Shown here: piece after piece, positions 9,667-61,526 of the stretch | Position numbering within the stretch: position 1 is the stretch's first letter | Layout of the letters: each line of letters opens with the position of its first letter | DNA from: Fidelibacterota bacterium | GTDB taxonomy: Bacteria > Fidelibacterota > UBA2242 | Direction: 5' to 3' | DNA: 63,595 nucleotides | Assembly (NCBI GenBank): GCA_018002295.1 | Contig: JAGNGI010000005.1 | Location: 1 to 63,595 of the forward strand | The notes under the pieces: model-generated | Told to the model about the DNA's origin: nothing | Databases searched by the model: none | What the model saw: the letters and a program-made list of their open reading frames with translations, nothing else | Program-made: the position numbers and the translations under genes

Positions 9667-10320
9667 TTATCTAAAAATCATTTCCTCAGTAATAACTACT
9701 TTTTTATTAATAACCGCCAAAATCGTAAGTAATATGATTCTAATATCTAATTTGAGGCTCCAATTATTAGCATAAGCTAATTCTAATCTTTTTTTATGAG
9801 GTAAAATTACTTTCCTGTCATACTCAAAGGGATTATTCACTGTTGCTAATAATTGATCTTCATGATGATAAATTAAAGAACCTGCACCAGTAATACCGGG
9901 CCGCATTGTATAGTATTGAACAATTTGCATTTCAGATAATGTTGTGGCTAATTGTTCGCGAACTAATGGACGCGGTCCTACTAAGCTCATATCACCCAAT
10001 AAAACATTTAATAGCTGTGGCAGTTCATTTATTTTTGTCTTGCGCAAAAACTTGCCAAATTTAAATGGCCGATTGTCATTTGCTGTTGTAATGTAACCCA
10101 TTTTTTCAGAGCCTTTAGGCATCGTTGTGAATTTATAAACATAAAAATCATTTCCATTATAGCCGACTCTTTTTTGAAGATAAAATACATCTTGTTTTTT
10201 AAGTTTCAATCCGATCGTGACAAAAAAAAAGATTGGTGAAGTAATAAATAACCCCAGAATAGCCATAATTTTATCAATGAGATATTTACTAAATAAGGTT
10301 CGATTTTTATTTTCGACCAT
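9667..10320 (-). CDS. Small monotopic sugar transferase (PglC/Bac_transf family) with an Asn-Glu dyad
   Basis: KFTTM, GKFLRKTKINELPQLLNVLLGDMSLVGPRP, RPGITG. The start is placed at ATG 10320, overlapping the legC end, rather than 10347. Confidence 0.88.
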   Translation of the reverse strand: MVENKNRTLFSKYLIDKIMAILGLFITSPIFFFVTIGLKLKKQDVFYLQKRVGYNGNDFYVYKFTTMPKGSEKMGYITTANDNRPFKFGKFLRKTKINELPQLLNVLLGDMSLVGPRPLVREQLATTLSEMQIVQYYTMRPGITGAGSLIYHHEDQLLATVNNPFEYDRKVILPHKKRLELAYANNWSLKLDIRIILLTILAVINKKVVITEEMIFR

Positions 10321-11476
10321 TCTTAAGAGCCTCACAAACTTGATCAATTTGAGTTCTACTGAGATTTACTGAACAAGGAATATTTAAAGTTATATCTAAA
10401 AGTCGCGGTGCTTTCTCTATTCGATATGACTGGCAATTACGGTAAGGTTTTTGTAAATGATTTAAATACCAAATTGGACGAGTTTGAATCTTTTTGTTTG
10501 TGAGAAGTGCCATAAGGCTTTCTCGATCACGCCCATAAATCTTTTTGTCAATCTGTAAACAGTACATCCAATAATTCACCACCGCATAGTCAGGAACAGG
10601 TGCTAAATTTAATCCATCAATTTTATCAATCTGGTTTTTATATATCTGGTAATTTTCTTGTTTGATGTCTATGTATTCTTTGAGTTTTTCAAGCTGGGCT
10701 ACTCCCATTGCGGCTTGGATATTTGTTAAACGGTAATTATACCCAATTTCATTATGGATAAAACGCAATTCATCATCTTTAGCTTGTGTGGTAAGGTAAC
10801 GAGCTCTATTGGCGATTAATTTGTCATTCGTTATTATCATCCCTCCACCACCGGTGGTGATTATTTTATTGCCGTTAAATGAAAAACAGCCGATTGTCCC
10901 AACTGTTCCTGTGAAGCATCCTTTGAGATTTGTATCTGTATAGTAAGTTCCGATAGATTCCGCCGCGTCTTCGATGACAATGATATTCCTTTGATGGCAT
11001 AATTCAAGTAATTCGGCTAGATTGACGGCGTTACCGAAAACATGCACTGGTACTAATGCGGCTATTCGTTTGCCAGTTATTGAGTTATAAGTATAACCAT
11101 TTTTAAACTTCGTCTGTGATTTAATAAATTCGATTGTCTTTTCTACGTCCAGGCAATAATAATCATCGCAATCCATAAATATTGGTTCGGCGCGACAATA
11201 ACGGACAACGTTTATTGAAGCTATAAAAGTTAATGTTGGGACGATAACCTCATCATTCTCAGTTACGCCAGCCAATTTGAGAGCTATTTCAAGCGCTGCA
11301 GTTCCGTTAACACACGCGATAGCATATTTACTTCCACATAATGAGCAAACATTCTCTTCAAATTTATTAACGTATTTACCGACAGAAGATACCCATTCTG
11401 TATCTAAACATTCCTTGATGTATTTCCATTCATTCCCGCGAATGGAAGGTACAGATAAAGGGATAAATTCAGACAT
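10307..11476 (-). CDS. legC: LegC-type PLP-dependent sugar aminotransferase (DegT family)
   Basis: FIPLSVPSIRGNEWKYIKECLDTEWVSSVG, EDAAESIG, FSFNGNKIITTGGGGM (PLP Lys), GYNYRLTNIQAA. Confidence 0.82.
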   Translation of the reverse strand: MSEFIPLSVPSIRGNEWKYIKECLDTEWVSSVGKYVNKFEENVCSLCGSKYAIACVNGTAALEIALKLAGVTENDEVIVPTLTFIASINVVRYCRAEPIFMDCDDYYCLDVEKTIEFIKSQTKFKNGYTYNSITGKRIAALVPVHVFGNAVNLAELLELCHQRNIIVIEDAAESIGTYYTDTNLKGCFTGTVGTIGCFSFNGNKIITTGGGGMIITNDKLIANRARYLTTQAKDDELRFIHNEIGYNYRLTNIQAAMGVAQLEKLKEYIDIKQENYQIYKNQIDKIDGLNLAPVPDYAVVNYWMYCLQIDKKIYGRDRESLMALLTNKKIQTRPIWYLNHLQKPYRNCQSYRIEKAPRLLDITLNIPCSVNLSRTQIDQVCEALKNGRK

Positions 11477-36642: not shown

Positions 36643-37146
36643 TTAATTATTGTTCCTAATCTTTATCGCTTCTTCAACCGCATCAGCGATGTATTGTGAA
36701 ATCCAATCGTATCTCTCTTTACTATTTTGTCCGGTAGGATTATAACATTTAACTATTGCAGATAATTTTTTACCACTATCGCCATAACCTATATAATCAA
36801 ATGGATTTTCGCCTTTATCGGAAATATACCCTTCACTATTTTTTAGCCCATGAATATAAATGCCAACGACGCCCATACCTTCATTCCACGACTTTATTAT
36901 TTCGTAATTTATCCATTTTCTGTTTGCGGTTTTACTTCCAACAAGCACAATAGTGCATGACCTATATTTCATTTGTTCATTTATCCACCTCTTAATGGCG
37001 TCATCACCAGCACTTATAATTCGTTCCCAATCATTATCGGGGGCGGGTTTATTTCCTTCTACAACTCCTATATTGCGAACCTGGGATGCCAGCCAACAAT
37101 CGGGTCTGTAATGAAAACTATAAAATACTTGTCTTTTTGTTGTCAT
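36643..37146 (-). CDS. TIR-domain protein (MTH538/DUF1863, ThsB-like)
   Basis: KRQVFYSFHY, SCTIVLVGSKTANRKWINYEIIKS with the catalytic Glu, GVVGIYIHGLKN, GENPF. Confidence 0.85.
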   Translation of the reverse strand: MTTKRQVFYSFHYRPDCWLASQVRNIGVVEGNKPAPDNDWERIISAGDDAIKRWINEQMKYRSCTIVLVGSKTANRKWINYEIIKSWNEGMGVVGIYIHGLKNSEGYISDKGENPFDYIGYGDSGKKLSAIVKCYNPTGQNSKERYDWISQYIADAVEEAIKIRNNN

Positions 37147-37150
37147 ATCT

Positions 37151-37552
37151 TTACTTAAACAAGGAATAAATTAAAGTTGTAATGCAGAGTAGTGATAAAT
37201 AAAAAATCAAAAGCGTCTGGGAAAACATTGATGGCAACCAGCAATTTTTTCTATTTTTCTTAAATTCATTCGTATCCATAGAAAAATCAATGTCTTTCAC
37301 ATCGAGCACCCTAACGTGGTCGTATAAAGCCCTAAATAATCTCTCTTGCGAAAGAAAATATCCATCTAAAACCCAAAATATTATTATAAGAAAATAGGCA
37401 ATCAAAATATAATTTTGGTTTGTATCTTTGGTAAACAACACAAAAAGTCCAGTTATCAAAGTAATCACCCAACCTCTAATGAAAAATAAATTTCCCGCCA
37501 TTCGGTTAATTGCACCCTGAATAAACTCTAAATGTTGTTGCTTATTTTCCAT
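37151..37552 (-). CDS. Small 3-TM membrane protein, putative TIR-signal effector
   Basis: HLEFIQGAINRMAGNLFFIRGW, two TM helices, polar linker DGYFLSQERLFRALYD, C-terminal TM; 4 nt from the TIR gene. Confidence 0.7.
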   Translation of the reverse strand: MENKQQHLEFIQGAINRMAGNLFFIRGWVITLITGLFVLFTKDTNQNYILIAYFLIIIFWVLDGYFLSQERLFRALYDHVRVLDVKDIDFSMDTNEFKKNRKNCWLPSMFSQTLLIFYLSLLCITTLIYSLFK

Positions 37553-37561
37553 TTTTAATTA

Positions 37562-39571
37562 TTAAATACTCTCATCAACGATCTTTACTGTTCTTTTCCT
37601 TAATTCAGCTTTCTCGTTAATAATATCTCTGGTCTCATTAGTAATTTTTTGAATCTCATTTTGATCATTACTTATAGGCAGAATAATTTCACTCAATCTA
37701 TTTCCAATAGTTGAAATTGTTGCCTGTACAAATGTTTTAGAATCTATTTGCTTTCTTACAATTTTACTATTCAAGAGATAAAACAAATAATACGGATCAA
37801 TAAATTCTGTATTTAGTACCCTGATTTTTCTTAAATGACTTTGAATAATTATCTTTAAATCTAATTTTGTAACCATGGCAGTACGTCCAATCAAAAATGT
37901 TCCGTCATTTACGAATAAAATGTCTTTCTCTTGAATATCTTGAGATTTCTTGTATTGATTGTATATATCATCAGAAACGGCTTTTACTGGATCAAATTTA
38001 ATTTCCCAATTAACAATGTCACTAGTTCTTACAAAAGGTATCTCTCCTGTTCCATAGAATTGCGAACCTATTTCGTTACCTCTTCTAATTTGCAAAATCC
38101 CTTTGTCTATTAACTCTCCAATTGAGATTAACGAATATTTGCCACTATTTTTTAATACCTCTAACTCCTTGCGGATTTCAGGATTATAGTACTCAGGAAT
38201 AAAAATATGATCGTTTAAGTCTGAATAAGCGATACGAAATCCTAAATGTTCATCTGTAATTTTATTTTTGTTGTTATATTCATTAAAATTCTTTGCAATA
38301 GCAGGAAGGTCATCATCTAAGATTTTACTACTGTTGGTTTTATCTATTTTATAGACGGGCTTTCCGTTTTTATTATGACCAACATTATAGGCAATTGCCA
38401 TAAAAATTGATTTTGGCTTCTCGGTAGTTTTTTTCAAAAATAAAACACTAGTTTTAGTATGTGTGCTTGGTTGAAAAGTTTCTTGAGATAAACTTACAAT
38501 TCCAATAACTGAGGCAACGCTTGAGATATATTCCCAGATATATCTATCAGACGGATTACCAAAAATACCTTCTGGTAAAACAATGCCAAGGCGACCGCCC
38601 TCGCGGAGCAATTGGAGGCATCTTTCAATAAATAAGACTTGGGGGGATTGCTTATCAAGTAATTTTTTTGTTTGTAGCCATTTTTCGCCATTTTCCCACA
38701 TGTGGCCTAGTTGATATTGACTCAATAATTCCCTCCCAACAACAGGAATTTTTGCCCCAAAAGGAGGATTTGTAAGAACAACATCAAAAGTGCCAAGCTG
38801 GATATTTTCTTTGGTATCTTTGCTCCATTTAATCGGAACCTCTAAGCTGTTTTCGCAATAAATATGAAATTCATGGTCGCCAAGTAATGAAAGGTAAATT
38901 TTTGCTATTTTTGCCAAGAAAGCATCTTTATCAATTCCAGTAAGATAAAAATTTTTCTTATTATTGGAAATAAAATGTCTTAATGTATAGGCGAGAAATC
39001 CCCCACTACCACAGGCAGGGTCAATAATCCGCTCCCCTTCTTGAGGAGACAAAACATCAATCATCATTTGCACAACATTTCTTGGTGTGAAAAATTGCCC
39101 TTCTCCACCTCTAAAAGAAGTGCCTATCAACTCTTCAAAGGCATCACCAATAACATCTCTGTCTGCATTTATGATTGAATAATCTTCTAATTTTGAAACT
39201 ATAAAAGAAAGTTCTTCAGCTTTTATTTCTATTTTTTCATTTTGCTCAAAAATATCAGGATAATTATTTTTGACTTTCTCAAATAAATCATCAATTCTTC
39301 TTTGAAACAAATCATAATTTTCATCGGGGCGGTTAGAAAATTCAACTATGTTTCTGCTATTCTTTTCATCATAAATTTTACAAAAAAGAAGCCGCATTAT
39401 ATTTTGTGCGATCTTTTCATCCCTTGTAATGCCAGTTACATTGCCAGCAAAATAGTCCCGAATTTCTCGAAATATCAACTTAAGATTGTTTATTGGTTTC
39501 AAGTCAACAATCTTGATCATTTTTTTAACTCTTGTTTTTTCGGCTAAATCAAATAAATATAAAGTTTCCAT
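37562..39571 (-). CDS. N6-adenine DNA methyltransferase (HsdM-like) fused to a C-terminal HsdS-like target recognition domain
   Basis: LLFCKIYDE, GQFFTPRNVV, motif I IDPACGSGGFL, motif IV TNPPFG, GRLGIVLPEG; C-terminal TRD-like IPFVRTSDI...GTFLIGRTA...QATISTI..RL.EI.LPI. Confidence 0.88.
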   Translation of the reverse strand: METLYLFDLAEKTRVKKMIKIVDLKPINNLKLIFREIRDYFAGNVTGITRDEKIAQNIMRLLFCKIYDEKNSRNIVEFSNRPDENYDLFQRRIDDLFEKVKNNYPDIFEQNEKIEIKAEELSFIVSKLEDYSIINADRDVIGDAFEELIGTSFRGGEGQFFTPRNVVQMMIDVLSPQEGERIIDPACGSGGFLAYTLRHFISNNKKNFYLTGIDKDAFLAKIAKIYLSLLGDHEFHIYCENSLEVPIKWSKDTKENIQLGTFDVVLTNPPFGAKIPVVGRELLSQYQLGHMWENGEKWLQTKKLLDKQSPQVLFIERCLQLLREGGRLGIVLPEGIFGNPSDRYIWEYISSVASVIGIVSLSQETFQPSTHTKTSVLFLKKTTEKPKSIFMAIAYNVGHNKNGKPVYKIDKTNSSKILDDDLPAIAKNFNEYNNKNKITDEHLGFRIAYSDLNDHIFIPEYYNPEIRKELEVLKNSGKYSLISIGELIDKGILQIRRGNEIGSQFYGTGEIPFVRTSDIVNWEIKFDPVKAVSDDIYNQYKKSQDIQEKDILFVNDGTFLIGRTAMVTKLDLKIIIQSHLRKIRVLNTEFIDPYYLFYLLNSKIVRKQIDSKTFVQATISTIGNRLSEIILPISNDQNEIQKITNETRDIINEKAELRKRTVKIVDESI

Positions 39572-39576
39572 AAAAA

Positions 39577-40584
39577 TTATTTACATCTGTTATGTGCACG
39601 CACTACAAATTCCATGAAGTCTAGAGTTTCATCTAACGAGTGGTCGGTCATCGAAACATTGCACCACCTATGACCATACCTAACATTACTTGAATTATGC
39701 TTAATTTGCATTTCAACAAGAGGATTCACATGCATTATTTGAATGCTTGAATCGTCTCCTTCTTCCTTTTTGGAAGAACGCCAAGCTGGTTGCCATGTTG
39801 TACCTCTCTCAGATTTTCTAAATGCCTCTAAACCTTTTGAAATATTAAGAAGACATACTGGACATTTAGTAATATCCTCTTTTTTCGTAGGGAAAATATT
39901 CGTCGGTAATGAAATTTTGTTATTAATATTTTGTTTTTCAAGTATTTGCTTGATTTTGGTATAAAGCGAATCAAAATCAGCTCCGTATAAATCAACAGCT
40001 AAAGCAAGTCCTAAAATAGCATAGGTTTCAACCGAGTCCCACCAATTACACGCTTCAAGGGCAGGAATCACGCACGAATTTTGTGTCCATAAAGTATCTG
40101 ACCAATGTTTTAGAGTGTTAATGTGTGGATACCAATGTTCAGGAAGGGCGACAAATCTTTCTGGCATTTCATGTACTTTATCTGAGGGGAATTTAAGCTC
40201 CTTACCTTTCGCGTCTTTAACTACGAAAACTAAAATCTGACCGTCGTCTTGCCCGCCAATTTCTATTCTTTCTATTTTTCTTGCAAAACCTGGTTTATTT
40301 TCTGCAACAATTAAAGGATGCCATCTTAAATTTCTATTTGAAAAAGGGGCTTTGCCTTGCCGACCTCTTGTGCATATAGCATCTCTCTGTATTTTTCCGC
40401 CACCTAATCCCAAACCACCATCTCTTGTATAACTAATTTTACCGTATTCCTTTTCGAAGTCTTTTTTGGCTTCTTCATCGGGAATAGAATCGGAAATCGT
40501 TTTTGATATTGAATCGCATAATTCAATAGCCTTACGATCTAAATCTGTTAGAAAACTCGCACTTATTGTTCTTCCTGTGGCCAT
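39577..40584 (-). CDS. Putative restriction endonuclease with a C-terminal His-Me finger (HNH); resembles the BstXI family
   Basis: CPVC...MHVNPL...HNSSNVRYGHRWCN..MTDHSLDETLDFM; directly upstream of the methyltransferase (5 nt gap). The BstXI resemblance is from memory of the family pattern. Confidence 0.7.
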   Translation of the reverse strand: MATGRTISASFLTDLDRKAIELCDSISKTISDSIPDEEAKKDFEKEYGKISYTRDGGLGLGGGKIQRDAICTRGRQGKAPFSNRNLRWHPLIVAENKPGFARKIERIEIGGQDDGQILVFVVKDAKGKELKFPSDKVHEMPERFVALPEHWYPHINTLKHWSDTLWTQNSCVIPALEACNWWDSVETYAILGLALAVDLYGADFDSLYTKIKQILEKQNINNKISLPTNIFPTKKEDITKCPVCLLNISKGLEAFRKSERGTTWQPAWRSSKKEEGDDSSIQIMHVNPLVEMQIKHNSSNVRYGHRWCNVSMTDHSLDETLDFMEFVVRAHNRCK

Positions 40585-40588
40585 GTGT

Positions 40589-40783
40589 TTATTTTATTAA
40601 TTCCTCAATCGGCACATTTAGTGCCTTCGCAATTTTTTCAAGCGTCTCAATCGTCGGGTTATGTTGCTTGCCTGCCTCTATGTAAATAATAGTATTATTG
40701 GAAATATCGGCAAGTCGAGCCAGTTTTTCTTGCGACAAACCTAGTTTTTCTCTCAGCAGCTTTATTTTACTTGATTCTACCAT
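40589..40783 (-). CDS. XRE-family HTH regulator, putative RM controller (C) protein
   Basis: IKLLREKLGLSQEKLARLADISNNTIIYIEAGK.NPTIETLEKIAKAL; 64 aa; first gene of the operon, 4 nt before the endonuclease. Confidence 0.85.
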   Translation of the reverse strand: MVESSKIKLLREKLGLSQEKLARLADISNNTIIYIEAGKQHNPTIETLEKIAKALNVPIEELIK

Positions 40784-40988: not shown

Positions 40989-40993
40989 TGATG

Positions 40994-40996
<3 letters not shown>
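40989..40996 (+). repeat. Right att-like direct repeat TGATGTGG
   Basis: Overlaps the last three nucleotides of the tRNA-Ala gene; identical to 36316-36323. Confidence 0.6.
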
Positions 40997-41066
<70 letters not shown>

Positions 41067-41117: not shown

Positions 41118-42239
41118 TTAATCGCCCGCTGGTGTTATTTTATAACCTTTGGCGTTCATCCGCCTCTCAAAATCGTTCAATTTTTTACGAATTACAGGAT
41201 CGTCTTCTATTTTCTCATCCAATTCGATTAATTCATAATTGACCGGATTAACGATTTGACTTTTTTGACGTAATAATTCGTTTTGAGTTTCTTGGAGATC
41301 TCGAATTACTTTCAGTTGAGTCGGTTTGTCGGCATAATATTCCTCGATGCTTTTATCGCCGGCATTTGTTTTAAAAGACTTGAGCCGATTGGTGGCAGAT
41401 TCCAGCTGAACGCTAATATTGGAAATATCCTGCAACGGCTTTTTAGGTTGATTAATTTCAGCTGTAATGATTCCTACGTATTTCCCAGTTGTACCACAGC
41501 GGGCGATAAACCTGCCGTCAACCACTTCCAGATTACGCGAATAGCGATAGGAACCCGCCATTAAAATAAAATCTATTTTCTCTTTAATTGCTCCGAGTTT
41601 ATTTTCGTCACCAGCGGTCAAAGCCGCTAATACTATGATATAGTCAGCCTTTTTACGCAGTGCCGGCAAATATTTATTTAAAGTCTGAATGGGATCGGCA
41701 ATCCCGACACCGCGGTATTTTTCATTCCAGACCGAAGTCACACCGATTATACCAAAATTTTTATTACCGACTTTGACGATTTTATATGGTTCAAAAACCG
41801 GTTTGCCGGTCAATGTATCCACCACGTTTGCGGAGATGAAAGTAAACCGGGCTTTGGCTTGTAATTCTTTCAAAAAGTCGAGACCTAAGGCGAAATCATG
41901 TCCACCGACATTATAAGCGTCGTATTTTAAATTATTATAAATATCAACGATCAGTCGCGCAGTTTCTTGCTTAAGTTCTAATTGCTTTGCCTCGATTTCA
42001 TCTCGATCGAAGAAAAGGTTACCGGCGTCCAATGTCAAACTGTTCGGGTAATTCGTCCGATATTTATTGAAAACTTCTGCACGCCTAGCCAGACCGCCAA
42101 GCCGATGCGTTCGTCACCCACAGGGTTCGGTTTCACCCATAACCGAACCTGTGTATAGGATTGCAAAGCGCTCGGCGGCGTTTACCTGGCTCAGCAAGCC
42201 GACGAGTATTATGCAAATTAGCTTAAACAATTTCTTCAT
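41118..42239 (-). CDS. UshA-like (5'-nucleotidase/metallophosphoesterase fold) secreted selenoprotein, 373 aa with Sec at codon 42
   Basis: MKKLFKLICIILVGLLSQVNAAERFAILYTGSVMGETEPCG-(TGA 42116-42114)-RTHRLGGLARRAEVFNKYRTNYPNSLTLDAGN continues in frame into track ORF 41118..42038. The ATG overlaps the fni stop (ATGA); signal peptide; SECIS-like hairpin. Confidence 0.88.
42079..42108 (-). promoter_or_regulatory. Bacterial SECIS-like element
   Basis: The upper stem GCUUGGC/GCUAGGC (7 bp with GU pairs) starts exactly 11 nt after the UGA; loop GGUCUG; lower GCA/UGC pairing. Spacing and loop resemble the E. coli fdhF SECIS. Confidence 0.75.
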
Positions 42240-43291
42240 TTTACATTACTTAAATTGCTATTGTTTTTGATAATCTCTGAATTACCGCGGAAAGTTCCCA
42301 AAGTTTTACAACCGGTGCAAAACATTGCGTGCCGCAAAGTATCGCCGAATAAATTCACGGTTTCAGCCAATCCTTCGGCGCCCTGGGCGTACCAGGTACG
42401 TACGAATAAAGCCGCACCACCGCCCAGAGTTGCCCCAAGAGCAATGGCTTTCGCGAACTGAAGACCGGTTTCGATTCCTCCGGATGCAATGACATTAATG
42501 CCTTTGATTTTTACGGCTTCCAATAAAGCCGATACGGTTGGAATTCCCCATTCGAAAAATTCAGCGGCTAATCGTTTTCGATAGGAATCGGTAATGCGTT
42601 TGGCTTCAATCCTTGACCAGGAAGTGCCACCGGCACCCGCCACGTCAATCCACTTAATTCCCATTTTGCCTAAGCGTCTAATGACCCCGCTCGAAAGTCC
42701 AAAACCTACTTCTTTTACAATAATTGGAATTGGCAAAGTATCTTTTAAAATCTCAATTGCCTGACTGACATTACGGAATGCAGGATCGCCTTCCGGTTGG
42801 AGAGCTTCTTGAAGTGGGTTGAGGTGAATTGAGAGTGCGTCTGCTCCTATTTCATTCAGTAATAATTTTAATGTCTGAAGATCTATTCCTTCCGCCAACT
42901 GGACTGCGCCCAGATTAGCAATTAATGGAATATCCGGTGCATTCTCACGCACGACTGCGTAAGTTCCCAATACAGATTTATCAATTAAAGCCGGTCGCAA
43001 ACTGCCAATCCCTAGAGCGATACGAGCTTTATTGGCTACTTTCGCGAGAGCTTTATTGAGTTCTTTACCATCGCTTTCGCCGCCGCCAATTGGACAAATT
43101 ATCAGGGGTATTTGGAGTTGATATCCGAGAAATTCGCAGGTACAATCAACCTCACGGAGGTCTATTTCTGGTAAAGCGTTATGAATAAAGGTAAATTGTT
43201 CAAAACCGGTTGTTACTTTTTCATACTGAACATTCTCCTCGCAAATAATTCGGAGATGATCTTTTTTACGCTCGGTTATTTTATGAATCAT
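42236..43291 (-). CDS. fni: Type 2 (FMN-dependent) isopentenyl-diphosphate delta-isomerase
   Basis: RKKDHLRI, ALPEIDL, GIGSLR, HLNPLQEALQPEGD, VKEVGFG, DVAGAGGTSW, ASGGI. Confidence 0.93.
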   Translation of the reverse strand: MIHKITERKKDHLRIICEENVQYEKVTTGFEQFTFIHNALPEIDLREVDCTCEFLGYQLQIPLIICPIGGGESDGKELNKALAKVANKARIALGIGSLRPALIDKSVLGTYAVVRENAPDIPLIANLGAVQLAEGIDLQTLKLLLNEIGADALSIHLNPLQEALQPEGDPAFRNVSQAIEILKDTLPIPIIVKEVGFGLSSGVIRRLGKMGIKWIDVAGAGGTSWSRIEAKRITDSYRKRLAAEFFEWGIPTVSALLEAVKIKGINVIASGGIETGLQFAKAIALGATLGGGAALFVRTWYAQGAEGLAETVNLFGDTLRHAMFCTGCKTLGTFRGNSEIIKNNSNLSNVK

Positions 43292-43349: not shown

Positions 43350-44105
43350 TTATTGCCGGTGAATTTTGTAACCAGCCCAGGATTGAGCAACTGGCATAAC
43401 TTCTAATTCGTTGACATTGACATGTGAGGGAAGGTGAGTGACCCAGAAGACCATTTCAGCAATGTCTTCAGCGGTCAAAGGCTGATAGCCTTGATAGACT
43501 GCTTGAGCTTTGGCAACGTTACCTTTGAACCGGATCAGTGAAAATTCGGTTTCGGCATTCCCGGGCTTGATATTAGTAACTCGAATCGCCGTTCCGCTGA
43601 CATCTGTTCGGAGATTACGACTAAACTGAGCTACGAAAGCTTTAGTGGCGCCATAGACATTACCGCCTTCATAAGGATAGGAGCCGGCTACCGAGCCAAT
43701 ATTAATAATATGCCCGGCATTCCTCGTAACCATACCGGGCAAAATCGCCCGAGTCACATACATTAAGCCTTTGATATTGGTATCTACCATCGCATCCCAG
43801 TCATCAAGATCGGCCGATTGAGCAGGTTCAAGACCGGCGGCTAAACCGGCATTGTTAACCAGAACATCCACTGCCTTAAATTTTTCCGGTAAATTGGTGA
43901 GAGTTTCCATAACTGCCTGACGCTGACGAATATCGAGAGTAATTGGTAATACAGTTACTTTTTCGCCGAGTTTGGCTGAAATAGCCATAAGGCGATCGGA
44001 GCGACGACCTATCAGAATCAAATTCCATCCTTCTGCGGCGAAACGCTCGGCGATACTTTTTCCAAATCCGGAAGTGGTTCCTGTGATTAAAATTGTTTTA
44101 GTCAT
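43350..44105 (-). CDS. NADP-dependent short-chain dehydrogenase (YdfG-like)
   Basis: ITGTTSGFG, LVNNAGLAAG, DTNIKG, YGATKAFV (YxxxK), PGNAETEFSLIRFKG. Confidence 0.88.
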   Translation of the reverse strand: MTKTILITGTTSGFGKSIAERFAAEGWNLILIGRRSDRLMAISAKLGEKVTVLPITLDIRQRQAVMETLTNLPEKFKAVDVLVNNAGLAAGLEPAQSADLDDWDAMVDTNIKGLMYVTRAILPGMVTRNAGHIINIGSVAGSYPYEGGNVYGATKAFVAQFSRNLRTDVSGTAIRVTNIKPGNAETEFSLIRFKGNVAKAQAVYQGYQPLTAEDIAEMVFWVTHLPSHVNVNELEVMPVAQSWAGYKIHRQ

Positions 44106-54243: not shown

Positions 54244-54319
54244 AGGATTGGTGGCTATTTAATAACGAAAATGACTTATTCTCAAAAATTTGTAACAATT
54301 GTCTCAAAAGGGCACTGTT

Positions 54320-56272
54320 ATGTTAAAGTTGAGAATTAGCGTCTTTGCCGTTTCTTTATTTCTTATCAGTGTTACTCTAGCGCAGGATTCTGAATTAGAT
54401 GAATGGCTAGAAATGGATTTAAGTGATTTGATGAATATCAAAGTCACGACTGCTACCAAGAGGGAGCAACTCATTGATAAAGTGCCCGCTACCGTCCGGA
54501 TTATTACTGATAAGGAAATTCAAGAGCGAGCCTACCACAGTCTGGAAGATGTTCTAAAAGATCTGCCCGGATTTCAATTTCGCGATATATTAGGTTTTAA
54601 CAGTTATTCTTTTCAACGCGGAGCACCCAGTCAGAATAATCTAATTTTAGTGATGATTGATGGGGTCGAGATCAATGAATTGAATTCGGGAGGATTTTAC
54701 GGTGGTTATCATTATAATTTGCAAAATATCAAACGAATAGAAGTGGTTTATGGACCTTCATCAGCCTTATACGGAACGAACGCCATTTCCGGAATAATAA
54801 ATTTAATCACCAAAGATGCGGAAGACGGACCGAGAGCCGAAGCGAGCCTAACAGCAGGTTCATTTGGAACGCTTTTCGGCGATGTCGGTTGGCGTCTAAA
54901 GCCGGAAAATTTGCCGTTCAGCGCAACTTTTTCCGCTTTTTATAAACAAACTGAAAAGGCGGATTTGGGAGGTACTAAAGGCGACAAAAACTGGTCAGAG
55001 AATATGGAAAATTTTGAAAATGATTATGGATTTGATTCCAAAATCAAATATAAAAACACCATAATTGGTTTGACACTTCAGGATAAACAGGCTTCCCGCA
55101 CGACAAATTATAAATCGCTCGGCACTAATTACCTTGACTATGGTACGAATTTTCACATTCGCTTTTTGAATGCCTATTTGAGCAACTTGTACACTAAAAA
55201 ACCGAGCTGGTCATTGAAATCGCAAATATATTACAGAAACTCGACGGTAATGGATAATACAATTGCCTATATTACTACTGATACTGGTCAGGTTGGATAT
55301 TATCGTCCGAATTCACTAATCGGGCTGGAAGAAAAATTCGATTATGAGTGGAGCAGTAAAGCCAACTTAGTTGCTGGAGTGGTAATGGAAGCCGAAAAAC
55401 TCGCCAGCGACTTTTCTATAACCTATAGTGATGACCCAGAAAAAGCTCCGGCTAAACCGGAGGAACCGGATTATGAAAATAATACTTTGATAAGTTTCTA
55501 CGTTCAAACCCAATACAAATTTTGGGAATTAGTCGAAATGACGGCTGGGGCACGCCTTGATCAAAGTTCCTATTATGGGACGATTTTGACTCCTCGCCTA
55601 AGTTTTGTTTATAGCCATAAGAATTATACCGGCAAGTTGCTTTATACTGAGGCTTTTCGAGCTCCAAGACCCTGGGATTATAACTGGGGCATTGGTAATC
55701 CGGATCTGAAACCGGAACGAATGAAATCAATTGAATTAGCCAATAATCTGAATTTCAATCAACGCTTACGCTGTGATTTTTCGCTATTCCATAATCAAAT
55801 TTATGATATGCTAATTGAGAAAGATTCGTGCTGGGTAAATGCCGAACGCATAAATACTAATGGTCTGGAATTAAATCTTGATTACCGCCGGAAAAAAATG
55901 CAGCTAAACCTGAATTATACTTTCACAGATTCTAAATTTTCTGACGGCAAACAGGTACCTGAAATTGCCCGCCACGGATTCAATGCCGGGGTTACCTATT
56001 CGTTATTGACGAACCTCAATGTCAATCTGCGTGGTAATTACCTCAGCCGCCGTAAAAATCCCGTTTTTATTTCTACAACTAAAAGTCATTATGTTGATCC
56101 ATACTTTGTGCTAAATAGTGTTATCAACTATAACCCGATCCCAAATCTGAAATTGCAGATTGCCGTCAACAATTTATTAAATGCTCGCTACTACCATACT
56201 AGTAACCGACCGCCAGAACGCTATCGTCAACCACAACGAGCTTTTTTGTTCAAATTGGGGTATCAACTTTGA
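54320..56272 (+). CDS. TonB-dependent outer membrane receptor
   Basis: Signal peptide, LSDLMNIKVTTATKREQ plug start, IKRIEVVYGPSSALYGTNAISGIIN, VNNLLN, C-terminal aromatic ending LGYQL. Start placed at ATG 54320 (track 54299). Confidence 0.92.
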   Translation: MLKLRISVFAVSLFLISVTLAQDSELDEWLEMDLSDLMNIKVTTATKREQLIDKVPATVRIITDKEIQERAYHSLEDVLKDLPGFQFRDILGFNSYSFQRGAPSQNNLILVMIDGVEINELNSGGFYGGYHYNLQNIKRIEVVYGPSSALYGTNAISGIINLITKDAEDGPRAEASLTAGSFGTLFGDVGWRLKPENLPFSATFSAFYKQTEKADLGGTKGDKNWSENMENFENDYGFDSKIKYKNTIIGLTLQDKQASRTTNYKSLGTNYLDYGTNFHIRFLNAYLSNLYTKKPSWSLKSQIYYRNSTVMDNTIAYITTDTGQVGYYRPNSLIGLEEKFDYEWSSKANLVAGVVMEAEKLASDFSITYSDDPEKAPAKPEEPDYENNTLISFYVQTQYKFWELVEMTAGARLDQSSYYGTILTPRLSFVYSHKNYTGKLLYTEAFRAPRPWDYNWGIGNPDLKPERMKSIELANNLNFNQRLRCDFSLFHNQIYDMLIEKDSCWVNAERINTNGLELNLDYRRKKMQLNLNYTFTDSKFSDGKQVPEIARHGFNAGVTYSLLTNLNVNLRGNYLSRRKNPVFISTTKSHYVDPYFVLNSVINYNPIPNLKLQIAVNNLLNARYYHTSNRPPERYRQPQRAFLFKLGYQL

Positions 56273-56315
56273 TATGATGAAATTTGATGTATTCCAAAGA
56301 AAATTGATCTATTGA

Positions 56316-56858
56316 ATGCCGCATAAAAATAAAATTATCGTCTGTATTGTTTGCTTCCTGATTCTTAGTTTTTCCTTTATTTACGCCAATTTGCCATTCA
56401 ATAGTGAAACTGAGATTAATGACTTAAAAGCGGCTTTCATTTATAATTTTACAAAATATATTACCTGGCCAGATCTTGAACGTAATAAAGTATTTTTTAT
56501 CGGAGTGATCGGCAATAGTGATATTGTCAATTCCCTGCGACGAGTGGCTGAGAAAAAATTCGTTAAAAATATACCAATTAGAGTTGCTCACTACCAAAGT
56601 GTTGATGATTTGAGATATTGCCATATTTTATTCATTTCTGCATCTGAAAAAAATCAACTCGATCCAATATTAGCCAAACTTAAGAAAAGGAAGACCTTGA
56701 CGATCGGTGACACTCCCGGATTTTGTGAAAGTGGTGTAATGATTAATTTTTTTATGCAAGAAGATAGGTTAAAATTTGAAATGAATCTTGCCAAATTGGA
56801 AAGTGCCGGCTTGAAAGCCAGTTCCCAAATTAAAAAATTAGCCCGGATTGTTGAATGA
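56316..56858 (+). CDS. YfiR-family (DUF4154) periplasmic protein
   Basis: LKAAFIYNFTKYITWP, CHILFIS, LTIGD..GFC..G.MINF, LKFEMNL, SSQIKKLA. Confidence 0.9.
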   Translation: MPHKNKIIVCIVCFLILSFSFIYANLPFNSETEINDLKAAFIYNFTKYITWPDLERNKVFFIGVIGNSDIVNSLRRVAEKKFVKNIPIRVAHYQSVDDLRYCHILFISASEKNQLDPILAKLKKRKTLTIGDTPGFCESGVMINFFMQEDRLKFEMNLAKLESAGLKASSQIKKLARIVE

Positions 56859-56900
56859 TGCCTTCATTTAAAGCCAAATTAAATTATTTGGTATGATGCT

Positions 56901-59900
56901 ATGGCGAAGATGAAGTCTATCAATCGGGGATTTTTTCAGAAGTTGTCATTTAGGAAAAAACTGATTGTAATTCAGTTAATTACAGTAAGCACTGTTATCG
57001 TATTTTTCATTATTTTTCAGGTAATAATAAATCAGATTGACTATCAGCGAGATGTCAATGAAAAGTTAGAAACGACAGCTCGCATCATTGGCTCGAATTC
57101 TATTCCTGCTATTTTATTCCTTGATAACGAAACGGCTGAAAATATTCTGGCTTCCTTACGAAGTGAAAATGAAATCGTCAATGCTTGGTTATTTGATCAC
57201 AATAAGAATTTGTTTGCAACATTTGCACGTGATGGGTTTGAGAATTATGATTATCCTTTCTTTGATAGCGGTAGACATAAGTCTCATTCGCGCGATGTAA
57301 TTTATTCTTTGGAACTTAACCAGGAAGAAATGCCGGTCGGGCAAATTTTGATTCGCTATAAAATGCATCCTTTAAGTCTGGTAATAATAGAAAATTTAGG
57401 ACTTGGGGTAATCGTTTTGCTGATTGGTTTTGGACTAGCTTTAGTTCTTTCATTTTATACCGGCAAGACCGTTTCAAACCCTATTATGGCATTGGTTGAT
57501 ACGATTAAAGAAATTTCGACTCGACATGATTATTCAATCCGTTTACCAAAAACGACTCAAGATGAAATCGGAATACTCTATGATGGATTTAACGAAATGC
57601 TGGAGCAAATCCAGAAAAAACAGGAAGAAAGGGATAAAGCCGAAAAAAAACTCAGAGAAGCAAACACAATTATCAATCGCAGTCCGGTCGTAGCTTTTAC
57701 TTGGTATAACAAACCCACTTGGCCAGTCGAGTTTGTTTCTGAAAGTGTCATCAATCTTTTTGGCTATACCGCCGATGAGTTTATACAAGGCAAAATATCC
57801 TATGAATCATGTATTTATCCTGAGGATTTACCGAGAGTTAATAGTGAGGTAGTTAAGTATAGTCAAACACCCGACGTGCAATCTTTTAAACATGAACCTT
57901 ATCGGATTGTTACTAAATCAGGCGCAATAAAGTGGATTGATGATCTATCTTTTATCATTAGAAGTGAATCCGGAGAAATTACCCATTATCAGGGCATCGT
58001 TTCTGATATTACTGAACGTATGGAATTCGAAGAATTGCTGAGGCAGAGCGAAATCCGTTATCGTCGAATATCTTCCGTAGTATCGGATTATGTTTTTTCG
58101 GCCAAAATCAATCAAGATGGTGTTCTGGTAACCGACTGGGTTGGCGGTGCCTTTGAGACCATAACTGGATTTACCTTCAAGGAATTTAGTGAAGCCGGTG
58201 GTTGGAGAGCCAGGCTCCATCCGGACGATCTTGAAAAAGATGATCATGATTTTGAAAAATTGAAAAAGAATGAACCGATCCAATCCGAATTACGCTTTTA
58301 TACTAAATCCGGTGAACTATTATGGTTAAGAGTTTATGCTTATCCGGTTTGGGATTATAAAAACAATAGATTAATTGGTGTTCATGGCGCGGTTCAAAAT
58401 ATCAATGAGCGGAAGAAAGCTGAGCAAGCTCTTCAGGAAAGCGAAGCCCGTTACCGATTGCTTTTCGAATCTAATCCGGCGCCGATTATAATCTATGAAC
58501 GTAATACCTATAATATTTTAGCGGTTAATGAGGCTTTCCTTCAGTTTTATGGTTATTCCAAAGATGAAATTCTGGCAATGTGCTTGACGGATCTTTATCC
58601 GGCAGATGAAAAAAAGAAAATAGTTAAAATGCTAAATGATTTATATGATTATCAAGATGCTGTCGAATGGCATCACTTGAAAAAAGATGGAACAATGGTA
58701 ACCGTCATTTTCCGTTCGAATGATTTGAAATATCAGGGGCATGATGCCCACGTCGCAGTTATCACTGACGTTACTGAACGAAAATTAGCCGAAGAAAAAA
58801 TCAAAAATTTGAACATAGAGCTGGAAAAAAGAGTTACTGAACGAACTGCCGATTTAGTAAAAGAAATTGAAGAACGGGAAAAAATTGCACTGACTCTGGA
58901 ACAATCTCGAGAATCTCTGAGAACTATCATTGAATCCATACCATTTCCTGTAGTGCTGGTTAATCAAGATCGAACAATCAGAGATGCTAATCAGGCTACG
59001 CTTGACTTACTCGGGTTTAATTCGTTTGATGAAATTGTTGGGAAAAATTGTTATGAAATTTTATGTATTTATAATAACGATACTTGCCCAATCTTAAGCC
59101 CAGATCAGATAGTAGATAAAAAAGAAACAGTGATCATAAATAAAGATAAGGTAAACATTCCAGTACTAAAAAGTGCAGTTCCAATTAAAATCGAAGGGGA
59201 AGAGGTACTGCTGGAAACCTATGTTGATATACTCAAAATCAAAATTATGGAAATGGAACTGATTCAGGCTAAGGAACAAGCCCAAGCCGCTACCCAAGCC
59301 AAAAGTGACTTTCTGGCTAATATGAGCCACGAAATAAGAACTCCGATGAATGCGATTATCGGTTTAACGTATTTAGCCTTACAAACCGAGTTAGACGCTC
59401 GACAGCATGATTACATAACTAAAATAAAATCATCCGCTCAGAATTTGCTGGAAATCATTAATGATATTCTGGACTTCTCCAAGATCGAAGCTCGTAGACT
59501 AAAACTGGAGAATATTGATTTTAATCTGGAAAAAGTTTTTCAGGATACCGCCAATGTTGTAACCTTTAAAGCCCATCAAAAAAATCTGGAAATCATCTTC
59601 GGCATAGATAAAAATATTCCGCGCTACTTAGTTGGCGATCCCTTGCGTCTGCATCAAATACTGGCGAATTTGACTAATAATGCCGTCAAGTTCACTGATA
59701 CCGGCGAGATTATTGTCCGGGCAGAAATGGATGAGGAATATGACGACACAGTAAAAATAAAGTTCTCAGTTAAAGACACCGGCATTGGTCTTACTAAGGA
59801 ACAGCAGGATAAGCTCTTTCAATCTTTTACCCAGGCGGATTCCTCCACTACCAGACGTTATGGTGGTACCGGTCTGGGATTGGCTATTTCTAAGCAATTG

Positions 59901-61526
59901 ACCGAACTGATGCAAGGCGATATTTGGGTCGAAAGTGTTTATGGAAAAGGCAGTACCTTCTACTTTACCGCTGTCTTTAAAAAGCAGGAAAATCAGAAAA
60001 TCGAAGAATTTGTTCTTACTCCCGATTTACGAGGGTTAAAAGTTCTGGTTTGCGACGATAATAAAAGTTCTCGTTTAATTATCAAAGGCGCACTTGAGAC
60101 TTTCGGTTTTAAAGTCGTGCTGGCATCTTCCGGCAAAGCGGCTATAGAAATTTTAAAGAAACACAAAAGCAAACCATTTCAGCTTATTATAATGGACTGG
60201 AAAATGCCCGAAATGGATGGTATCGAGACTATTCAAACAATCCGAAAGGATCCTGAAATTCCCTCTGCACCAGCCATCGTTATGGTCAGCGCTTATAGTG
60301 AAGAAAAAATCATTGACAATATTGAAAAAATTGGAGTTGATGCATTTTTACTAAAACCGATCACCAATTCGACATTATTTGATACAATTATGCAGGTCTT
60401 TGGCAAAACCACTCCTAGGCGCAAACGCCAAGCCGACCGAGGCCAAAGACTTAAAAGTGAGTTGGCGCTCATCAAAGGCGCCCGGATCTTAGTTGCCGAA
60501 GATAATGAAATCAATGAGCAGGTTATAAATGGATTGCTTACTGCTTATGGAATGGACGTTATCGTAGCCGAAAATGGTCACGTTGCGGTTCAGAAATGTC
60601 AGGCGATGCCACCGGCGGAACTCGACCTGGTTTTTATGGACCTTGAGATGCCGGTATTGGATGGTTATGAAGCGACCAGGGCGATCCGTCAAATTGCGGG
60701 ATATGAAAAGCTACCGATTGTCGCGCTGACAGCCGATGCTATGTCCGGCACAAAAGGGAAAGTATTATCGGCGATGATGAATGATTACATTACCAAACCG
60801 ATTGATCCGAACGAGGTCTATAACATTCTGGTTAAGTGGATTCCAGCTAAAAGAAAAAAAATAAATAAAGGTGAATCTGAACAGCAGTTGGCTAAAAATC
60901 TAAATTTTCCAGAAGTATCTGGTATTGATGTCCAGTCTGGTTTGAGACGGGTCGCCGGTAACCAGCAATTATACGGAAAGATTCTGCAAAATTTTGTGCG
61001 TGAAAATAAAAATTTGATCACAAGCCTTCAAAATTACTTGGTAGATAATGACTTAGAAGCAGTTGAACATCGGGTACATTCTCTCAAGGGAAGCTCTGGT
61101 AATATCGGAGCCCAGAAATTATATGAAGTCGCTTCTGCGCTTGAAATGGAATTAAAATCAAAATCTCCTGATTCTAAAAATATTATGGAATTAATTCAGC
61201 AATTGAGTATGGAACTTGAGTTGGTTTTTAATACAATTCAAAAAATTGAATTGCCAGCCGAAATTATTAGTTCTGATAAAACCAATAAACCCGGGAAATG
61301 GGGAATTGAGCAGAAAAAGAAATGCCAGGAATTAAAAAAATACTTGGCTGAGTATGACGCAAGAGCCAGTGACATTTTCTATTTGATCAAGAGTGAATTA
61401 AGCCAATCAATTCCTGAAGTAGATTTGACAAAAATCGCCGAATCTATTGAGCAATACGATTATGATCAAGCCCTAAGTATTTTAGAGAAATTCATTGAAC
61501 TGGGCGACCAGGTCAATAAGGATTAA
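56901..61526 (+). CDS. Hybrid sensor histidine kinase: CHASE-type periplasmic domain, HAMP, four PAS, HisKA/HATPase, two REC, Hpt
   Basis: Two TM helices, [14 protein letters not shown] (HAMP), [35 protein letters not shown], two DD...D.MP receivers, HSLKGSSG (Hpt). Confidence 0.93.

Follow-up and report, generated by a model that had tools for sequence, protein, structure and literature searches.

The closest described relatives of the gene considered here are selenocysteine (Sec)-containing offshoots of the UshA fold, a family catalogued since 2008. The Global Ocean Sampling (GOS) survey lists it as 'COG0737, UshA-like, CxU', with 76 sequences containing Sec, found across 20 samples, and 92 Cys homologues (Zhang & Gladyshev 2008, PMC2398784), it reappears in two reviews (PMC9312934; PMC13188914), and it is modelled in NCBIfam as NF041198 'UshA_like_PCGU' (UshA-like (seleno)protein), for which WP_263046620.1 and WP_013162925.1 are cited as exemplars. 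None of the three papers (PMC2398784, PMC9312934, PMC13188914) proposes a function for the family, and a literature search returned nothing on selenoproteins of Marinimicrobia. The mechanism by which a UGA codon is recoded is textbook knowledge. Here we describe a member of this family encoded by a 63,595-nucleotide stretch of a Fidelibacterota (Marinimicrobia) genome (assembly GCA_018002295.1, contig JAGNGI010000005.1, positions 1 to 63,595; hereafter the window). The locus, at 41118..42239 on the minus strand, is very likely a genuine gene, wrongly annotated, whose product is an exported selenocysteine protein of 373 residues. Its main features are the following:

41118..42239, minus strand: full gene for the UshA-like selenoprotein, made up of 373 codons and a TAA stop, with codon 42 = UGA (Sec), as given by translation, the NF041198 match and the full-length homologues P0009-P0012
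42177..42239, minus strand: putative signal peptide MKKLFKLICIILVGLLSQVNA, codons 1-21, likely cleaved after VNA
42114..42128, minus strand: E-P-C-G-U motif, codons 38-42, with the Sec codon UGA at 42116-42114, as given by translation and the codons of homologues
42079..42108, minus strand: Sec insertion sequence (SECIS) hairpin with the lower stem GCAU/GUGC, the upper stem GGCUUGGC/GCUAGGC at 42083-42102 and the apical loop GGUCUG at 42090-42095
42036..42038, minus strand: TTG used as start by open reading frame (ORF) finders and public annotation; codon 68, a false start within the domain
41250..41432, minus strand: two long antiparallel helices, codons ~270-330, from the AlphaFold2 model of homologue P0009 and NF041198 model positions ~270-384

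A mechanical ORF search reports only 41118..42038 on the minus strand, a 306-residue product starting at the TTG. The initial annotation had noted that this start lies in the middle of a domain and that the frame continues upstream through one TGA to an ATG overlapping the stop of the preceding gene, and ORF search and translation agree with it: the frame 42239..41118 holds a single in-frame stop, the TGA at 42116-42114 (codon 42), and its ATG (42239-42237) overlaps the TGA stop of fni in an ATGA at 42239-42236. Translation of the whole frame also places the TGA where it had been reported, inside a motif of the Cys-x-Sec (CxU) type; the context in the window is MKKLFKLICIILVGLLSQVNAAERFAILYTGSVMGETEPCG*RTHRLGGLARR, which with Sec at the stop gives ETEPCG-U-RTHRLGGLARR. 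The predicted signal peptide has the expected properties, MKKLFKLICIILVGLLSQVNA followed by AERF, i.e., a basic start, a hydrophobic core and an AXA-type site (VNA before AE), and homologues have equivalent hydrophobic N-termini, some of which end lipobox-like with Cys. A signal peptide of this Sec type (here the export route) would send the protein to the periplasm. Two scans of the window for other frames interrupted by one TGA, or for a TGA followed by a hairpin with a GGUY loop, left the site at codon 42 as the only plausible one.

The conservation of codon 42 was followed at the level of DNA. A database search returned 24 relatives, the nearest eight of which are all from Marinimicrobia, annotated with ~305 residues and called from just after the TGA. 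A locus scan with one genome per GTDB species, based on an alignment restricted to short forms, provided 80 loci, mostly from metagenome-assembled genomes (MAGs) of Neomarinimicrobiota/Marinimicrobia. A TGA directly after [ED]PCG was present in 68 distinct homologous loci, nearly all from Marinimicrobia (Fidelibacterota) MAGs and with 26-96% identity, and in these 68 loci the TGA is preceded by 35-50 codons comprising the signal peptide and the first strand and followed by ~330 codons. The codons ahead of the TGA vary synonymously (Pro as CCC, CCA, CCT or CCG, Cys as TGT or TGC, Gly as GGC, GGG, GGT or GGA), and the upstream piece is therefore under selection at the protein level. In relatives the Sec position can be occupied by Cys, with TGT in L007/L008 and TGT or TGC in L064, L068, L085, L087 and L088; these Cys forms comprise one short form (L007/L008) and long forms, described below, from Desulfobulbaceae, Ca. 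Electronema, Bacteriovoracaceae and other MAGs of the Deltaproteobacteria type. The comparison of 68 loci sharing the codon, with conserved coding sequence on both sides, confirms that the TGA reading is more than chance, and the Sec/Cys pair at the aligned codon supports the proposal made earlier for this locus, namely that it hides an exported selenoprotein belonging to the UshA-like CxU proteins. UGA42 is in all likelihood decoded as Sec in a member of the UshA-like PCGU family. The Marinimicrobia MAG CAJWLO01 harbours two divergent TGA-bearing paralogues (L027 and L075) on separate contigs.

These comparisons also bear on two other ways of reading the codon. If TGA42 were a true stop, the locus would consist of a 41-codon remnant and a 306-residue protein starting at the TTG at 42038, i.e., a decaying or N-terminally truncated gene. 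Precisely such genes are called in five public contigs, in one record together with the 41-residue piece, and no Sec machinery is encoded inside the window. However, the 41 codons ahead of the TGA vary synonymously and are conserved at the protein level in the 68 distinct loci down to 26% identity, the TGA itself is conserved and replaced by Cys in relatives, it is followed by the covarying SECIS described below, and a product from codon 68 would lose the signal peptide, strand β1, helix α1 and the only family-invariant motif, so that we consider a genuine stop very improbable. The second possibility, a reassignment of UGA to Trp or Gly (genetic code 4 or 25), is suggested by the full-length database homologues, which at the Sec position show W in P0010-P0012 and P0014-P0017 and C in P0009. 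In the underlying DNA, however, each of these W residues is a TGA that was translated as Trp by annotation pipelines, the C of P0009 is a genuine TGT, and homologues otherwise encode Cys here rather than Trp or Gly. Moreover, TGA terminates 13 of the 44 long ORFs of the window, that of fni included, housekeeping genes are intact under code 11, no other long frame of the window needs read-through, and the tRNA with a UCA anticodon found in a relative fits the model of tRNA-Sec. The probability of a reassigned code is accordingly close to nil.

The best-described counterpart of the RNA element behind the TGA is the SECIS of E. coli fdhF. In fdhF, SelB requires a spacing of 11 nucleotides (nt) and the bases G23 and U24 of the loop. 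The initial annotation had placed a hairpin with the loop GGUCUG exactly 11 nt past the TGA of the window, and this position is correct: the hairpin GCUUGGC-GGUCUG-GCUAGGC begins 11 nt past the TGA. If the U of UGA is taken as nt 1, its loop comprises nt 22-27, the same position at which GGUCUG follows UGA140 in fdhF, where the upper stem-loop also starts 11 nt past the UGA. In both cases the element lies within the coding sequence directly 3' of the UGA. The two differ in their stem sequences, an equivalent of the bulged U of fdhF is not established in the window, and the loop in the family studied here is either 6 or 5 nt long, depending on which of two registers is used. Including its lower stem, the 30-nt element of the window has a predicted folding energy of -13.2 kcal/mol (z = -1.96).

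The evidence for a functional element comes mainly from comparison of the homologous loci. Nucleotides 19-27 from the UGA read GGC GGT CT(G/T) in all TGA forms, the two Gly codons being GGC in 68/68 and GGT in 68/68 cases, in contrast to the Gly directly before the TGA, for which all four codons are used. The Cys forms vary at the loop codons (GGTGGCTTT, GGCGGCTTT, GGCGGGCTC), and in the Cys form P0009 the spacing is one codon shorter. In the first register, characterized by a 6-nt loop and an Ala codon (GCN) after the Leu codon, 93% of the cells of the alignment of 39 distinct sequences are paired vs 27-55% in slid controls, pair 16:33 occurs as CG, UA and GC and pair 18:31 as GC and UA, and 0/500 shuffles match the covariation score. 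In the second register Leu is followed by a Ser or Pro codon (TCN/CCN), the 3' arm is moved by 1 nt and the loop is GGUCU; here 82% of the cells are paired (28 sequences) vs 25-52% in slid controls, and pair 18:30 is seen as GC, AU, CG, GU and UA. RNAalifold recovers the same helices unprompted. Several compensatory changes leave both encoded amino acids as they are (Leu CUG/CUU paired with Arg CGG/AGG) and thus reflect selection on the RNA rather than on the protein. The bacterial SECIS families of Rfam do not match the hairpin region, the sole match being by chance (E = 7.7). The hairpin would presumably recruit SelB carrying Sec-tRNA(Sec). A long, cytochrome-fused member (L093:100-180) also has EPCG-TGA, but there the GG pair is preceded by seven rather than five codons and the loop is GGCGGGCUG; because its spacing and loop differ, the SECIS is not uniform across the family.

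With respect to the machinery for Sec decoding, ARAGORN detected in 0.94 Mb of fetched related loci a tRNA-Sec with anticodon UCA at L014:547-640, which matches RF01852 with 56.2 bits (cut-off 47). L014 is an 8.6-kb contig of a Neomarinimicrobiota MAG and carries a TGA-form gene as well, in the same gene order as in the window, i.e., short-chain dehydrogenase (SDR), fni and UshA-like gene. A second tRNA-Sec was found, together with SelA, in the Syntrophaceae locus L079. A tblastn search with E. coli SelA, SelB and SelD over the same 0.94 Mb returned only SelA in L079 and a false match to SelB in L029; the latter was rejected after reading of its sequence, which is that of a TypA/BipA-like GTPase. 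The gene and the tRNA-Sec on the contig of a relative indicate Sec decoding in Marinimicrobia/Fidelibacterota. Previously, SAR406 was listed only under 'orphan SelD', with three single-cell genomes in a 2016 survey (PMC5029168).

The recoded codon has consequences for the public databases. The initial annotation had predicted that standard gene callers would truncate the gene, and this is the case in five public contigs, which call a 306-residue product; where the identical gene is present (L094-L097), all public calls begin at the internal TTG, and in GCA_035365455.1, the 41-codon N-terminal piece is called in addition as a separate gene. The NCBI family model misses the short form by score, and a selenoprotein of an abundant ocean phylum is in this way labelled 'hypothetical protein'.

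The family to which the protein belongs had been recognized beforehand as a known group of UshA-like selenoproteins, and the best NCBIfam match is indeed NF041198 (E = 2.5e-73, 247.4 bits), covering residues 16-365 of the protein and positions 15-382 of the model, which has 519. Other short forms from Marinimicrobia obtain scores of 165-240 and the long form P0018 a score of 313. Model positions ~385-519 correspond to a multihaem domain of the Cytochrome_C554 type with four CxxCH motifs, present in long members such as P0018 and P0022, and there is no CxxCH motif in the window protein or in any short form from Marinimicrobia; a long member with Sec exists, too (L093). The members of NF041198 share with the window protein the P-C-G-U/C motif after strand β1, a degenerate metallophosphoesterase domain, a signal peptide and the helical region, and the long ones differ from it by their tetrahaem cytochrome c554-like C-terminal domain. 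E38-P39-C40-G41-U42, G48-G49 and D71 are invariant or nearly so across the family. Within the UshA-like PCGU family, the window gene represents the short form typical of Marinimicrobia, and the trait specific to this subfamily is the lack of the C-terminal multihaem cytochrome domain. Within Marinimicrobia/Fidelibacterota the gene seems to be near-universal.

Three other groups of proteins can be compared. The GOS/Sargasso 'COG0737, UshA-like' selenoproteins likewise have a CxU motif on a COG0737 fold and are abundant in ocean metagenomes; the corresponding paper (PMC2398784) describes neither their architecture nor a SECIS and assigns them neither hosts nor gene neighbourhoods, and the two sets are likened by motif and fold. 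Marine short forms homologous to the window protein occur in Tara assemblies. Another Sec-bearing offshoot of the UshA fold, NF049981 ('UshA-like (seleno)protein family 2'), has a CxxU instead of a CxU motif, and the window protein reaches only 56.4 bits vs a cut-off of 140. The thiosulfohydrolase SoxB (TIGR04486; PDB 2wdc and 4uwq) belongs to the same superfamily, is periplasmic, acts on sulfur substrates and shows a weak similarity (E = 5.7e-16; PDB profile 4e-5), but it uses a di-manganese centre whose ligands are intact and also has a C-terminal domain, and the window protein scores 57.9 bits against a cut-off of 550.

A structural model was available for P0009, a natural Cys homologue that is 49% identical to the window protein and of the same length (AlphaFold mean predicted local distance difference test score (pLDDT) 87.6, predicted template modelling score 0.86). 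In this model, residues 1-21 have a pLDDT below 50 and are followed by a strand at 25-32, and the C-terminal third consists of helices at 274-294, 307-329 and 349-364 and a strand at 333-340. When it was used for a Foldseek search, the top matches were CD73 and E. coli UshA (E ~1e-20, template modelling score 0.61); a PDB profile search gave CpdB/5'-nucleotidases with 1e-21, and the profile alignment to E. coli UshA obtained an hhalign probability of 99.4%. E. coli UshA, human CD73 and CpdB share with the window protein the calcineurin-like N-terminal fold, a periplasmic or extracellular location and the motifs FPxxSAN and GKYxG; unlike the window protein, they possess intact dimetal ligands and a C-terminal nucleotide-binding domain, and they have neither the C-G-U insertion nor the helical hairpin insert.

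The dimetal ligands of UshA, which we take to be D41, H43, D84, N116, H217, H252 and Q254, with H117/D120 as catalytic pair, were compared with the window protein in the profile alignment. D41 corresponds to S32, H43 to M34, D84 to N74, N116 to G113 and H217 to A206, there is no His at the positions of H252 and Q254, and the catalytic pair corresponds to H114/A117; the ligand positions are variable across the family. In agreement with the initial annotation, translation and this alignment show altered phosphoesterase motifs (YTGSVMG, DAGN and GGHD), and the 5'-nucleotidase C-terminal domain (5_nucleotid_C), stated there to be absent, has no match in Pfam, in which Metallophos appears only below threshold (14 bits vs a cut-off of 21.5). 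The protein ends at a helix that aligns with the interdomain linker of UshA, and the nucleotide-binding domain is therefore cleanly absent. The coiled-coil-like insert that had been described is retained as the two long helices of the P0009 model, but not as a peculiarity of this gene, since both the helices and the loss of ligands are found throughout the family. Relative to UshA, TEPC forms a 4-residue insertion directly after motif I, and the Cys-Gly-Sec loop, inferred from this alignment, would occupy the former metal site.

One could nevertheless assume that the protein, in the manner of UshA or CpdB, still functions as a 5'-nucleotidase or phosphodiesterase in the periplasm and that Sec is an accessory residue. 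The clear homology and the fold match to UshA, CD73 and CpdB favour such an enzyme, as does the conservation of the equivalent of the catalytic His117 as H114 in the window protein. Yet H114 is replaced by Q, K, N or E in relatives, all metal ligands are replaced (D41S, H43M, D84N, N116G, H217A and none at H252/Q254), as is D120 by A, the family does not conserve the ligand positions, the C-terminal domain that binds the substrate is lacking and the Metallophos score is sub-threshold. Because the dimetal ligands are replaced and the nucleotide-binding C-terminal domain is missing, the window protein is not a nucleotidase by our reading, and we give a phosphoesterase function very little chance. 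The earlier wording 'redox-active or Se-binding rather than nucleotidase' is a reasonable inference.

Hints to the possible function of the protein were obtained from the gene neighbourhood. Throughout the clade of the window gene (42-96% identity), it is preceded by a YdfG-like SDR gene and fni, an order SDR-fni-selenoprotein that may simply be inherited within one clade. A functional tie between fni and the selenoprotein was considered, but no rationale was found that links an isoprenoid enzyme with a periplasmic selenoprotein. In distant marine clades (~30% identity), about 31 of 63 distinct loci (among L004-L006 and L025-L084; e.g., L025:2617-3105, L050:7525-7986 and L071:1973-3199) have rhodanese and MauE/DoxX genes adjoining the selenoprotein gene on the same strand, either upstream or downstream. 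The rhodanese is membrane-anchored and has a YCxGGxC loop, the MauE/DoxX membrane protein has a CGC motif, and both are fused in L071. In Desulfobulbaceae and Electronema, a gene for a membrane multihaem cytochrome comes next after the long form. A literature search returned no paper describing the trio of rhodanese, MauE and UshA-like protein.

The periplasmic location, the Cys-x-Sec pair, the membrane partners related to sulfur carriage and thiol redox reactions and the haem-domain fusion together suggest a role in redox reactions or in the transfer of sulfane sulfur or selenium. Such a periplasmic redox or sulfur/selenium transfer role is our preferred, though tentative, assignment, to which we give slightly less than an even chance. 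A selenenylsulfide couple of Cys40 and Sec42 would then likely act as redox centre or as carrier site for chalcogens or persulfides, and electrons or sulfane sulfur would be passed on to partner proteins, namely to the fused tetrahaem domain in the long forms and to rhodanese and MauE/DoxX in many marine Marinimicrobia. A more specific version, possible but rather doubtful, is that the C-G-U loop on a metal-free phosphoesterase scaffold serves as catalytic centre of an undescribed periplasmic relay for sulfane sulfur/selenium or for thiol-selenol exchange. According to this proposal, marine Marinimicrobia would have a three-part system of rhodanese, MauE/DoxX and selenoprotein, and in Desulfobulbaceae and related groups the domain would be wired to a tetrahaem cytochrome. 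If this were true, it would mean new enzyme chemistry, with selenocysteine in place of a dimetal centre, and the relay might explain the 'orphan SelD' of SAR406. For a family that has been without a proposed role since 2008, the rhodanese and MauE/DoxX neighbourhood and the cytochrome fusion provide concrete, testable partners and substrates.

The main alternative to a redox or transfer role is non-catalytic binding: the Cys-Gly-Sec loop would, in the periplasm and with high affinity, bind or carry metals, metalloids or chalcogens such as Se, S0, Hg, Cu or As, and the protein would serve as a chaperone, as a sensor or in detoxification. This would fit with the placement of the loop, by alignment with UshA, in the former metal-binding pocket, with the conserved acidic residues E36, E38 and D71 around it, with rhodanese neighbours as sulfur/selenium carriers and with the lack of an obvious partner for electron transfer near the window copy. 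On the other hand, the fusion of the long forms to a tetrahaem cytochrome domain argues for electron transfer, and Sec is usually selected for catalytic redox roles, as is generally known and stated in PMC2398784. We therefore regard mere binding as conceivable but on the whole unlikely.

Several observations weigh against the interpretation of the locus as a recoded gene for a periplasmic redox or transfer protein. The stability of the hairpin is by itself a weak argument: in the folding check proposed beforehand, the 30-nt hairpin stood out (z = -1.96), but its 66-nt context is no stabler than shuffled sequences (z = -0.08). In addition, the hairpin sequence is partly constrained by the conserved peptide LGGLA(R/K). 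The fold model is that of the Cys homologue P0009, in which residues 43-45 of the CGC loop have a pLDDT below 50. The score for NF041198 is below the curated cut-off of 275 bits, because model positions ~385-519 are missing from the window protein. No selA, selB, selD or tRNA-Sec was detected within the 63.6-kb window (NCBIfam on ORFs of at least 150 residues; ARAGORN and Rfam), which is unsurprising for a stretch of only this length. Finally, the clade of the window gene is devoid of rhodanese and MauE neighbours, tblastn finds neither of them in the window, and the gene sits behind fni without an obvious functional link.

While the selenoprotein family was already catalogued, the following aspects are new: the host phylum, the mis-annotated short architecture that falls under the NCBI cut-off, the comparative proof of a SECIS with two registers, the tRNA-Sec in a syntenic relative and the neighbourhood with rhodanese and MauE.

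In the window, the selenoprotein gene is the last of a string of three genes on the minus strand, and the tRNA-Ala gene behind it marks the end of its transcription unit:

43350..44105, minus strand: YdfG-like SDR (NF007829, E = 1.8e-107, below cut-off), first gene of the SDR-fni-UshA-like string
42236..43291, minus strand: fni, type 2 isopentenyl-diphosphate isomerase (TIGR02151, 365 bits), directly upstream of the selenoprotein gene
40993..41066, minus strand: tRNA-Ala(GGC), identified by ARAGORN and Rfam, directly downstream of the selenoprotein gene

Beside this tRNA-Ala gene (40993-41066) lies a likely defence island, which covers 36643-40783 on the minus strand and comprises the following genes:

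40589-40783, minus strand: XRE-type helix-turn-helix protein
39577-40584, minus strand: 335-residue protein, no family assigned
37562-39571, minus strand: MAD2-like N6 methyltransferase with an Eco57I-type tag (E = 8e-105, below cut-off)
36643-37146, minus strand: ThsB-like Toll/interleukin-1 receptor (TIR) protein

Two further regions deserve mention. At 54299-61526 on the plus strand, a TonB-dependent receptor, a YfiR-like periplasmic protein and a hybrid histidine kinase of 1541 residues are encoded, which resemble the NCBIfam set 'TOL_0244 / TOL_0243 / HK_near_YfiR_like'; of this trio, only the YfiR-like protein is above its cut-off. The TonB-dependent receptor matches weakly a TonB family with a Sec motif of the FCYXU type, without having an in-frame TGA. 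At 6921-9464 on the minus strand, a fusion protein of 847 residues is encoded, which consists of a WecA/MraY-like transferase (residues 6-314) and a polyprenyl glycosylphosphotransferase (residues 391-841). A separate second copy of the polyprenyl glycosylphosphotransferase domain is located at 9667-10347 on the same strand, and both are part of a polysaccharide biosynthesis cluster of ~24 kb.

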